A stretch of DNA of 64,000 bases, taken from NCBI GenBank assembly GCA_947449315.1, contig CANFRC010000001.1, positions 237,793 through 301,792 on the forward strand. Reading direction: 5' to 3'. How positions within the stretch are numbered: the first letter of the stretch is position 1; every line of letters starts with the position of its first letter. The position numbers and the translations under genes are program-made. Of this stretch, positions 53,917 to 55,310 are shown in pieces. This stretch comes from Bacteroidota bacterium. Its GTDB lineage: Bacteria; Bacteroidota; Bacteroidia; 2-12-FULL-35-15. The notes beneath the pieces were generated by a model. The model was not told the DNA's origin, ran no database searches, and saw nothing but the letters and a program-made list of their open reading frames with translations.

Positions 53917-55059
53917 TTAGTTAGAACCTAAAACACCTAATAATTTATTTACTTGACTATCCCAAAGTAATTTTGAAGTTTCCATATCAGAAGCTTCATC
54001 TGCGAAATCAATAATAATAAGTGAAGTGTCGCCAGTTAATTCATCCTTTTCGATACGGAATTCAAAATAGGTTCCTTCCGGTTTGTCCATCCAGCGAAGA
54101 CGGATAAATTTATCTTCTTTAAATCCAAGTAATTTTGCTTTTTGCTCACTTCCATCCCAGAAAAAAGTAAACATACCGTCACGGATATTCACATCGTCTG
54201 CGAACCATTCGGATAAACCACTTGGAGAGGTAATAAATTCATACAAGATACCTGCAGAAGTACGAATCACATACTCCAGTTCAAATTTTCCTTTCGGCTC
54301 TTTTTTAGGAATAATAGCACCTTTTTTTCCGCTATTCTCAGATGGAGCAACGGTAAGAGAGGTCATAGGATTCACAAAGGTTTTTAAGATCTTAGGAACT
54401 TTAGGGCCATTTTTCTTCTTTTTAGTACTTGCTATTAATTGTTCGATCAATTCATCATGCACAATTTCCGGCTCATCATCATCATCTCCATCCTTCTTCT
54501 TTGGCTTTCTTCCTCCTTTTGATCTGCTAGGCTTTATTTTTATAGGCTTGATTTGTTCTTTTTCTTCACTTTTTTTGGCTACTACCTTGATCACAACTTT
54601 CTCTTCTTTAGCTAATTTCACTGATTTTTCCGGTGCAACTACCTTTTTTGCACCCTTTGCAGGCTTCACAACTTTCAATTCAAGCTTCCCGCCTACTGGA
54701 CGGGCAGGTTTTACAGGCAATTTTACCACTTTAACCGGCTTAACAACCTTTTTAGCAATCGCTTTAACTGGTTTCTGTACTTTCCTGCCTGCAGGACGGG
54801 CAGATTTAGGGGTCACTTTTTTAGCAATCGCTTTCTTCACCACCTTTTTAACAGGTTTAACAGTCTTTTTAGGCACTATTTTCTTCGCAACCTTCTTCGC
54901 AACTTGTTTCTTTGCAGCGGGTTTAGACGATTTAACGACCTTTTTTACAGATATTTTTTTTGCTGCCTTAGCTAGCTTCGCTTTTTGGGCTACAGACTTT
55001 GCTTTAGCAGGTTTAGATGACTTTTTCACTGGTTGGGATTTACTTTGCTTTTTGCTCAT
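53917..55059 (-). CDS. Lys/Ala/Val/Pro-rich (H1-like) region fused to a C-terminal START-like (SRPBCC) domain
   Basis: C-terminal ~123 aa KFELEY...TSPSGLSEWFADDVN...LWDSQV; N-terminal ~255 aa of KKVAKK/KPVKK-type repeats. Confidence 0.82.
   Translation of the reverse strand: MSKKQSKSQPVKKSSKPAKAKSVAQKAKLAKAAKKISVKKVVKSSKPAAKKQVAKKVAKKIVPKKTVKPVKKVVKKAIAKKVTPKSARPAGRKVQKPVKAIAKKVVKPVKVVKLPVKPARPVGGKLELKVVKPAKGAKKVVAPEKSVKLAKEEKVVIKVVAKKSEEKEQIKPIKIKPSRSKGGRKPKKKDGDDDDEPEIVHDELIEQLIASTKKKKNGPKVPKILKTFVNPMTSLTVAPSENSGKKGAIIPKKEPKGKFELEYVIRTSAGILYEFITSPSGLSEWFADDVNIRDGMFTFFWDGSEQKAKLLGFKEDKFIRLRWMDKPEGTYFEFRIEKDELTGDTSLIIIDFADEASDMETSKLLWDSQVNKLLGVLGSN
54688..54708 (-). repeat. 21-nt GC-rich palindromic element, copy 1 (encodes PARPVGG)
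   Basis: CCTGCCCGTCCAGTAGGCGGG; 16/21 GC; terminal 6-bp stem. Confidence 0.7.
54784..54804 (-). repeat. 21-nt GC-rich palindromic element, copy 2 (encodes SARPAGR)
   Basis: TCTGCCCGTCCTGCAGGCAGG; 15/21 GC; 17/21 identical to copy 1. Confidence 0.7.
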
Positions 55060-55233: not shown

Positions 55234-55307
55234 GGCGAGGTAGCTCAGATGGTTAGAGCGCAGGATTCATAACCCTGAGGTCTCGGGTTCAACTCCCGAT
55301 CTCGCTA
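55234..55307 (+). tRNA. tRNA-Met(CAT), elongator type; CCA not encoded
   Basis: Cloverleaf: acceptor GGCGAGG/TCTCGCT, D-arm AGCTCAG..GG..AGAGC, anticodon CAT 55268-70, GGTTCAA T-loop, A73; lacks initiator hallmarks (C1:A72 mismatch, three G-C anticodon pairs). Confidence 0.93.
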
Positions 55308-55310
55308 CAC

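Follow-up and report, generated by a model that had tools for sequence, protein, structure and literature searches.

Two GC-rich blocks in a lysine-rich coding tail

The DNA analysed here, referred to throughout as the window, is a stretch of 64,000 nucleotides (nt) on contig C1 (C1:237793-301792) of a Bacteroidota genome of 2.61 Mb (27 contigs, 35.8% G+C, 99.8% complete). Our subject is a pair of GC-rich 21-nt blocks within one of its genes, which are very probably old and partly decayed copies of a mobile hairpin element. The host gene encodes a protein with a C-terminal START_2 domain (PF19569, residues 256-378, E 1e-41) and a lysine (Lys)-rich, histone-H1-like tail covering about residues 1-215 (Table 1). 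A preliminary description of the window, made from the sequence alone, had placed two 21-nt blocks in frame between Lys codons of this tail, and this was borne out exactly. Each block amounts to seven codons on the minus strand, which is the coding strand, and the two are identical at 17 of 21 positions. Their G+C content (76% in copy 1 and 71% in copy 2, in AT-rich DNA) likewise agrees with that description, and the codons GCC, GGC and GGG of copy 1 are atypical of the tail of the host gene. At up to three mismatches, these are the only two copies in the window, and 100 shuffles yielded none.

The same description had called the blocks palindromes, but as such they are weak: their 6-bp arms contain a G.T pair or a mismatch, and the blocks form only imperfect, decayed hairpins. 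Folded as DNA, copy 1 reaches -5.2 kcal/mol (z-score -2.8) and copy 2 reaches -4.1 kcal/mol (z-score -1.2), compared with a z-score of -4.0 for the master copy of the family described below.

A dispersed family of 20- and 21-nucleotide hairpins

We searched the genome for sequences within three mismatches of three related master sequences, with three shuffled genomes as control, and recovered 20 copies, compared with none after shuffling. Master B (CCTGCCTGTCCGGCAGGCAGG) has an 8-bp stem and a 5-nt loop (-8.8 kcal/mol), master A (CCTGCCCGTCCGGCAGGCGGG) differs from B at two positions, and PAL20 (CCTGCCTGCCGGCAGGCAGG) is a perfect palindrome of 20 nt. The 18 copies other than those in the window, together with the empty orthologous sites reported below, back the earlier proposal of a mobile, non-autonomous miniature repeat. 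A genome-wide tally places 13 of the 20 copies inside genes and seven outside, and the division follows length: all 13 of the 21-nt copies lie in long open reading frames (ORFs, called here as stop-to-stop proxies), compared with none of the seven 20-nt copies (Fisher p 1.3e-5). In this genome, the 20-nt form persists only outside genes. This clean length split is confined to the window's genome. In a genome of a different family, G030, the genic fractions of 20- and 21-nt copies are ambiguous (9/24 versus 13/20, by a crude measure of spanning ORFs), where many of the 20-nt copies form part of composite repeats of greater length. Several 20-nt copies of G030 (L264, L270, L273, L283; L259, L262, L272) have longer conserved flanks, for example ...IRNFxN-PCLPAGRR-NPKF....

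The master 21-mers are free of stop codons in all six frames. Since 21 nt also equal seven codons, coding insertions are simply translated and survive where a short loop is tolerated. Named hosts include functional ORFs such as LepA, PheT, TopA and the START_2 protein. The six A-type copies lie in Lys-rich tails (two in the window, three in a DksA/TraR-like protein and one in topoisomerase I), and the B-type hosts are LepA, PheT, an epimerase, a methyltransferase, a Gfo/Idh/MocA oxidoreductase, an HD protein and one further protein. The suggestion that the repeat is tolerated in disordered protein regions therefore holds in part: Lys-rich tails do carry copies, but the presence of others in LepA, PheT and four enzymes means that the elements are not limited to such regions.

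None of the three masters begins with a CGTC foot, and CGTC is confined to the interior of A-type copies and to some loop variants. Terminal GTAG is likewise missing from the masters; it is internal in window copy 1, as the preliminary description had recognised when it set this tetramer aside as a foot tag. GC hairpins of the form AAAAAA-CCCGCA...TGCGGG-TTTTTT, picked up in a first scan, are ordinary terminators and were excluded from the family. Neither the exact strings nor the peptides matched any paper in a search of the literature.

Table 1 Coordinates of the features discussed. Positions without a contig prefix are counted from the first letter of the window.
Feature	Position	Strand	Remarks
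Host gene	53917..55059	-	380 aa; Lys-rich N-terminal tail and C-terminal START_2; ORF call and PF19569
Element copy 1	54688..54708	-	CCTGCCCGTCCAGTAGGCGGG; A-type, 2 changes relative to CCTGCCCGTCCGGCAGGCGGG; PARPVGG flanked by Lys codons
Element copy 2	54784..54804	-	TCTGCCCGTCCTGCAGGCAGG; 3 changes relative to either master form; SARPAGR flanked by Lys codons
tRNA-Met	55234..55308	+	Adjoins host gene, unoccupied; context, not part of the inserts
A-type copies	C4:78115, 78277, 78427		Lys-rich tail of DksA/TraR-like protein
A-type copy	C12:42981		Lys-rich C-tail of topoisomerase I (TopA)
Complete cassette	C1:137072-137501		tRNA 5' fragment with PAL20, GIY-YIG ORF, tRNA-Arg(ACG), terminator, second partial tRNA with PAL20
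Intact GIY-YIG gene	C1:137201-137455		84 aa; about 100 kb outside (upstream of) the window; PF01541, E 5e-16
Second GIY-YIG gene	C3:210399-210710		Decayed (two stop codons); directly upstream of tRNA-Ser(GGA)

Precise insertion at sites that are empty in relatives

LepA reads GGCAAAAAG-B-TATGTTTTAAATTTA in this genome, with the junction GGCAAAAAG^21 nt^TATGTT, and the site is empty in all 29 relatives compared (GGCAAAAAA-TATGT..., exactly 21 nt shorter), including members of other families of the class. PheT reads GGTGG^21 nt^AAAAGTG, the insert again being B, where relatives have GGTGGAAAAGT; here too the site is empty in 29 of 29 compared relatives, other families among them. The two insertions differ in codon phase, and neither the LepA nor the PheT junction shows a target-site duplication beyond an ambiguity of 1-2 nt. 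An A/T-run adjoins both inserts but on inconsistent sides, and no consistent target motif was found apart from a single 3' base, described below. Guide-target base pairing of the IS608 type was considered and rejected: the differences between A and B do not complement the flank preference.

The two sites in the window tell a similar story. Deletion of the blocks had been said to restore the local pattern of the tail, and orthologues agree. At site 1, four congeners (G020, G009, G005 and G023) show a clean 21-nt gap (...CCA ATY GCA^AAA GTT GAG...), so that KVVKKPIA^KVEIVK in the congeners corresponds to KVVKLPVK-PARPVGG-KLELKVV here. At site 2, the element is missing from the nearest usable orthologue (G020) within a 27-nt gap, the Lys-rich tail being too low in complexity to give a cleaner junction. 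Elsewhere in the genus, this START_2 tail has copies at different positions, three in G023 and two in G005. On this comparative evidence, 21 nt were gained precisely and without duplication, and the direction of the change is insertion.

Decayed copies are also common to sister species (L010/L014 and L003/L024), and G005 has the counterpart, a perfect B (L314), of a copy that has two mismatches in a 335-aa protein here (C9:24846-24866); this is either an older inherited insertion or one site used repeatedly. The insertion reads NLPAGQAG here and DLPAGQAG at L314, in an orthologous protein of about 330 aa. Given both lineage-specific insertions and shared decayed or orthologous copies, the ages of the insertions span lineage-specific to ancestral. 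In G030, an A 21-mer sits exactly at the centre of B (CC^GG) and creates a nested palindrome of 42 nt (L277, L279, L284), which suggests that hairpin loops are themselves insertion targets.

Distribution across genomes and phyla

Among 41 relatives, the 21-nt pattern occurs in 12, the 20-nt pattern in 13 and both in 10, whereas a reversed-pattern control gave no match in any of the 41. In an even sample of the phylum, 64 of 401 genomes, representing 48 of 178 genera, carry the element, with up to 43 copies each. A scan for the exact B 21-mer, taking one genome per species, found at least 120 loci in many phyla, compared with about 0.3 expected by chance. Bacteroidota, Chloroflexota, Planctomycetota, Nitrospirota, Omnitrophota and many Patescibacteria are among the matches listed, as are Ignavibacteria, Melainabacteria, Bdellovibrionota and one archaeal metagenome-assembled genome. 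A few matches in very GC-rich genomes could be due to chance, and some could reflect binning errors in metagenome-assembled genomes. Ten viral contigs contain the B 21-mer, one of them in three copies. In other phyla, the exact B 21-mer often abuts a different family of GC hairpins (CTCCCC-loop-GGGGAG and similar; L099, L108, L124, L146, L154, L166, L176, L179, L183, L198, L204), which hints at clusters of several mini-hairpin families.

The anatomy of the insertions was examined in 125 exact B copies, 95 of which lie within ORFs of at least 150 aa. Just over half of these genic copies (50/95) are read as x-LPAGQAG, compared with 7-11 in each of the other five frames (chi-square p 1e-17), and 70 of the 95 face the same way with respect to the gene (p 4e-6). 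Read in the TCCGG-loop orientation, the base directly 3' of B is C in 79 copies, T in 39, G in 6 and A in 1. The bias does not depend on the reading frame and extends to non-coding DNA, which makes it a feature of the mechanism or of recognition and not a result of selection on protein.

Linkage to a mini GIY-YIG nuclease

The preliminary description had named RAYT/IS200-like transposases and GIY-YIG nucleases as possible mobilisers encoded elsewhere. No RAYT/IS200 gene was found (PF01797, zero hits in the genome), while the GIY-YIG candidate gained support from both physical linkage and co-occurrence. The genome encodes an intact single-domain GIY-YIG protein whose nearest solved structures are the UPF0213 proteins 1zg2 and 1ywl; NCBIfam has no family for this protein or for the START_2 host protein. 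The last codons of its ORF run into an intact tRNA-Arg(ACG). Upstream of the gene lies a displaced tRNA 5' fragment broken by PAL20 (GCGAA^PAL^GCTCGAC), and downstream lies a partial tRNA copy broken by PAL20 at the same D-arm position (GCGTA^PAL^GCTCAAC). The same cassette architecture with PAL20 is present in G015, and PAL20 also occurs beside the tRNA-adjacent closest homologues in G005, in G030 and in two metagenome contigs; the pairing is likewise recorded at L319-L321.

In six further genomes (G047, G177, G078, G363, G253, G423), the best homologue lies 19-193 nt from a palindrome, and in G078 and G423, the palindrome adjoining the nuclease gene is the only copy in the genome. Homologues at E<=1e-13 are present in 42 of 64 genomes with the palindrome, compared with 70 of 337 without it (odds ratio 7.3, p 5e-12, shared ancestry uncorrected). 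Family membership, distribution and linkage to the nuclease gene are, like the insertions themselves, shown by these data.

Mini GIY-YIG genes are also found in other settings. The second, decayed gene of this genome belongs to a tRNA-Ser cassette in which the 5' fragment of the tRNA is duplicated and which has a 19-nt palindrome of its own (TCCGAAGGACTCCTACGGA), with two copies there and none elsewhere in the genome. In relatives, distant paralogues (30-45% identical) have different hairpins on their flanks; several of these carry a CGTC tag and resemble the NTS, one example being CGTCATCCCGTG...CACGGGATCTTG. Near-identical mini GIY-YIG genes form tandem arrays with a spacing of about 300-380 nt in G112 (C2:365027-368829, 13 genes) and G080 (C19:516158-517919, five genes). 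As to the host gene of the window, an Rfam scan of the region returned the neighbouring tRNA as the sole match. In the congener G018, the equivalent tRNA-Met by the same START_2 gene holds a mini GIY-YIG gene of another subclade (L018:748-1145), and G027 also has a mini GIY-YIG gene beside its START_2 gene. Literature searches that combined GIY-YIG nucleases, hairpins and tRNA turned up organelle papers only.

Comparison with Ssn nucleases and a possible mechanism

The Ssn proteins are single-domain GIY-YIG nucleases of about 94 aa (Chenal et al., Nat Commun 2025; PMC11893778). Their substrate is exclusively single-stranded DNA, in which they bind a cognate CGTC-tagged hairpin (NTS/SRM) on one strand and cleave a few bases upstream of it; no base contributes more to SsnA binding than the C that directly follows the hairpin. 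Ssn genes are flanked by the repeat in a layout like that of an insertion sequence, and mobility of the repeat was hypothesised only (PMC11893778). Our system resembles this one in several respects: (i) copies of a GC-rich hairpin repeat, itself dispersed genome-wide, stand on either side of the gene for a small single-domain GIY-YIG protein (84 aa here, 94 aa in SsnA); (ii) repeat and nuclease co-occur strongly at the genome level, here without correction for ancestry; and (iii) the repeat has an orientation. The base directly 3' of the hairpin gives a partial parallel at most: SsnA requires C, and C or T follows B in 118 of 125 copies, but A or G follows 16 of 18 A-type copies. It differs in that PAL is without the CGTC foot tag and is 20-21 nt long, compared with 28 nt for the NTS, and in its association with tRNA genes: the gene here is fused to them and accompanied by a displaced 5' fragment of a tRNA, a word never used in PMC11893778. 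Precise in-frame insertions in essential genes and letter identity across phyla are not described there either. Given the shared geometry, architecture and co-occurrence, but also the missing CGTC tag, the shorter unit and the tie to tRNA genes, we describe the pair as working like an Ssn/SRM pair and not as a proven member of that group.

We consider it probable that the blocks in the window are decayed copies of a 20/21-nt hairpin that inserts precisely and is non-autonomous, with the mini GIY-YIG nuclease as its most likely partner. That the nuclease itself mobilises the hairpin is a tentative proposal, made by analogy with Ssn. In such a scheme, the nuclease would recognise the hairpin in single-stranded DNA, on one of the two strands, and nick beside it. 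Host ligation or repair could then join freed or copied hairpins into nicks or gaps, such as those of the lagging strand, and replication would leave the insertion in one daughter. Phages and horizontal transfer could carry the nuclease-hairpin pair between hosts and phyla.

Several observations weigh against this proposal. The DNA around solo copies is no richer in GIY-YIG genes than control DNA (3 hits in 911 kb, compared with 2 in 311 kb), and linkage therefore exists only at the level of the cassette and the genome. A close nuclease homologue is missing from 22 of the 64 palindrome genomes, about half of the closest homologues have no palindrome in the DNA examined, and the co-occurrence statistic (odds ratio 7.3) ignores the shared ancestry of the genomes. 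A-type copies, including both in the window, are followed by A or G and not by C (A in 12 and G in 4 of 18). Since a GIY-YIG hydrolase alone is unable to join DNA, a second activity must be assumed, and movement of the hairpin is deduced from sequence comparison.

Alternative explanations

The alternative that survives best is enzyme-free spread through host replication and repair, by ligation of hairpin oligonucleotides, template switching or illegitimate recombination. The cassette would then merely carry the hairpin or use it as a landing site, or the nuclease would restrain the hairpin as SsnA restrains transformation. We regard this as possible but rather unlikely. It would accommodate the third of carrier genomes that lack a close nuclease homologue, the solo copies with no local link to a nuclease gene, and precise insertion with neither duplication nor a transposase signature, and for the Ssn proteins themselves, cleavage and an effect on transformation were shown and not mobility of the repeat (PMC11893778). 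However, such spread poorly explains why stem and loop are letter-perfect across phyla, and does not explain the strand-specific 3' flanking base or the genomes G078 and G423, whose sole copy abuts the nuclease gene.

It is improbable that K-[PS]ARPxGG-K is a selected functional peptide motif of Lys-rich DNA-binding tails, comparable to an AT-hook, that spread by duplication or gene conversion. A-type copies in the genus are indeed concentrated in Lys-rich tails (of three proteins here and of others in G015, G005 and G023), always in the PARPxGG frame with Lys codons on both sides, and selection for Arg over Cys may well explain why tails hold A-type rather than B-type copies. Yet the synonymous positions are fixed, with codons that are otherwise rare in the tails. 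Across the three Lys-rich tails, the first Ala codon of the element is GCC in 6 of 6 copies, compared with 7 of 69 background Ala codons of these tails, and all nine Gly codons of the element are GGC or GGG, as is none of the six background Gly codons. In G030, the identical A 21-mer is read in other frames, in non-basic proteins and in non-Lys contexts; ortholog sites are cleanly empty, copy positions differ between species, and Pfam finds no AT-hook match in the host protein. Ordinary intragenic duplication, which the preliminary description had put forward as the competing origin, does not account for them, copies being present in three unrelated Lys-rich proteins. From these comparisons, the blocks are inserted DNA, and neither a peptide motif nor an internal duplication. 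The peptide may have been exapted later, and the A-type, with Arg where B reads Cys, has probably been kept mostly in the Lys-rich tails of the genus through tolerance or selection.

A repetitive extragenic palindromic (REP) element, or REPIN, moved by a RAYT or an IS200/IS605 Y1 (HUH) transposase, is very improbable and already largely refuted for this genome. A short GC-rich hairpin without target duplication and with a strand and orientation bias (the 70 of 95 genic copies that face one way) would suit such a system, and Y1 transposases are present in 33 of the 41 relatives. Nevertheless, the absence of PF01797 hits concerns a 99.8%-complete genome with lineage-specific LepA and PheT insertions, the carriers G020 and G031 also have no PF01797, and many element-free genomes do have it; furthermore, the GTAG foot tag is absent and most copies here are genic and not extragenic.

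Finally, an assembly or adapter artefact can be dismissed: although many carriers are metagenome-assembled genomes, insert-bearing genes recur identically across independent assemblies and assemblers (the START_2 protein with both inserts on 8 independently assembled contigs and the LepA protein verbatim on 17), isolate genomes carry the element as well, decayed copies are common to sister species, and the reading frame is preserved throughout.

Relation to other palindromic repeats

Among described repeats, the CGTC REPs have a stem of 8-9 bp and a loop of 4-5 nt with no known transposase, occur in Bacteroidetes, and in some cases lie within ORFs and are translated (Di Nocera et al. 2013; PMC3733652). 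The element shares this geometry (8-bp stem, 4-5 nt loop), but the defining terminal tetranucleotide of the CGTC- and GTAG-tagged REPs is missing, and while REPs mostly lie outside genes, 13 of the 20 copies here lie inside them. The GC clusters of yeast mitochondria are GC-rich palindromes in AT-rich DNA that proliferate, pass between species, and merge or nest into new units (Wu and Hao 2015; PMC4478555). The A copy in the centre of a B copy is nesting of this kind; the yeast clusters differ in being organellar and longer (GC42), with no nuclease partner known.

Rickettsia palindromic elements (RPEs; Ogata et al. 2000, cited in PMC3733652) also place a palindromic repeat in frame within functional protein genes and add a peptide segment. 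RPE-1 is reportedly roughly 100-150 bp long and lineage-restricted, whereas the unit described here has 20-21 nt and crosses phyla. Heterocystous cyanobacteria are said to contain small dispersed mobile repeats of 21-27 nt, both genic and intergenic, with no associated enzyme identified; their sequence families and host range differ from those of our element. Classical transposons and miniature inverted-repeat transposable elements differ from it in combining terminal inverted repeats with a target-site duplication, which the LepA and PheT junctions lack.

Implications for peptide and repeat evolution

The most far-reaching version of our proposal is that a bare hairpin of 20/21 nt is cut and re-inserted by an Ssn-like nuclease with the help of host ligation, that it has reached more than ten bacterial phyla and their phages with almost every letter unchanged, and that the 21-nt form is in effect adapted to coding DNA. 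We consider this version unlikely as a whole. If true, PAL would be among the smallest known mobile DNA units, the Ssn family would gain a role in the dispersal of repeats, and the six-frame-open 21-nt form would seed seven-residue loops (LPAGQAG, PARPAGG) in essential proteins. That Ssn-family nucleases, whose hairpin-directed cleavage of single strands was first described in 2025, disperse their own hairpins is a testable hypothesis, and a nuclease-hairpin pair with a new specificity could serve as a tool for single-stranded DNA.

The family explains many odd GC-rich 'PARP/LPAGQAG' insertions in metagenomic proteins and is thus of use in annotation, and the insertions provide clean presence/absence markers for the phylogeny of strains and species. 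They also represent a route to new peptide sequence, in which seven-codon loops enter conserved essential genes such as LepA, PheT and TopA and then evolve, as the copies in the window, already diverged, illustrate.

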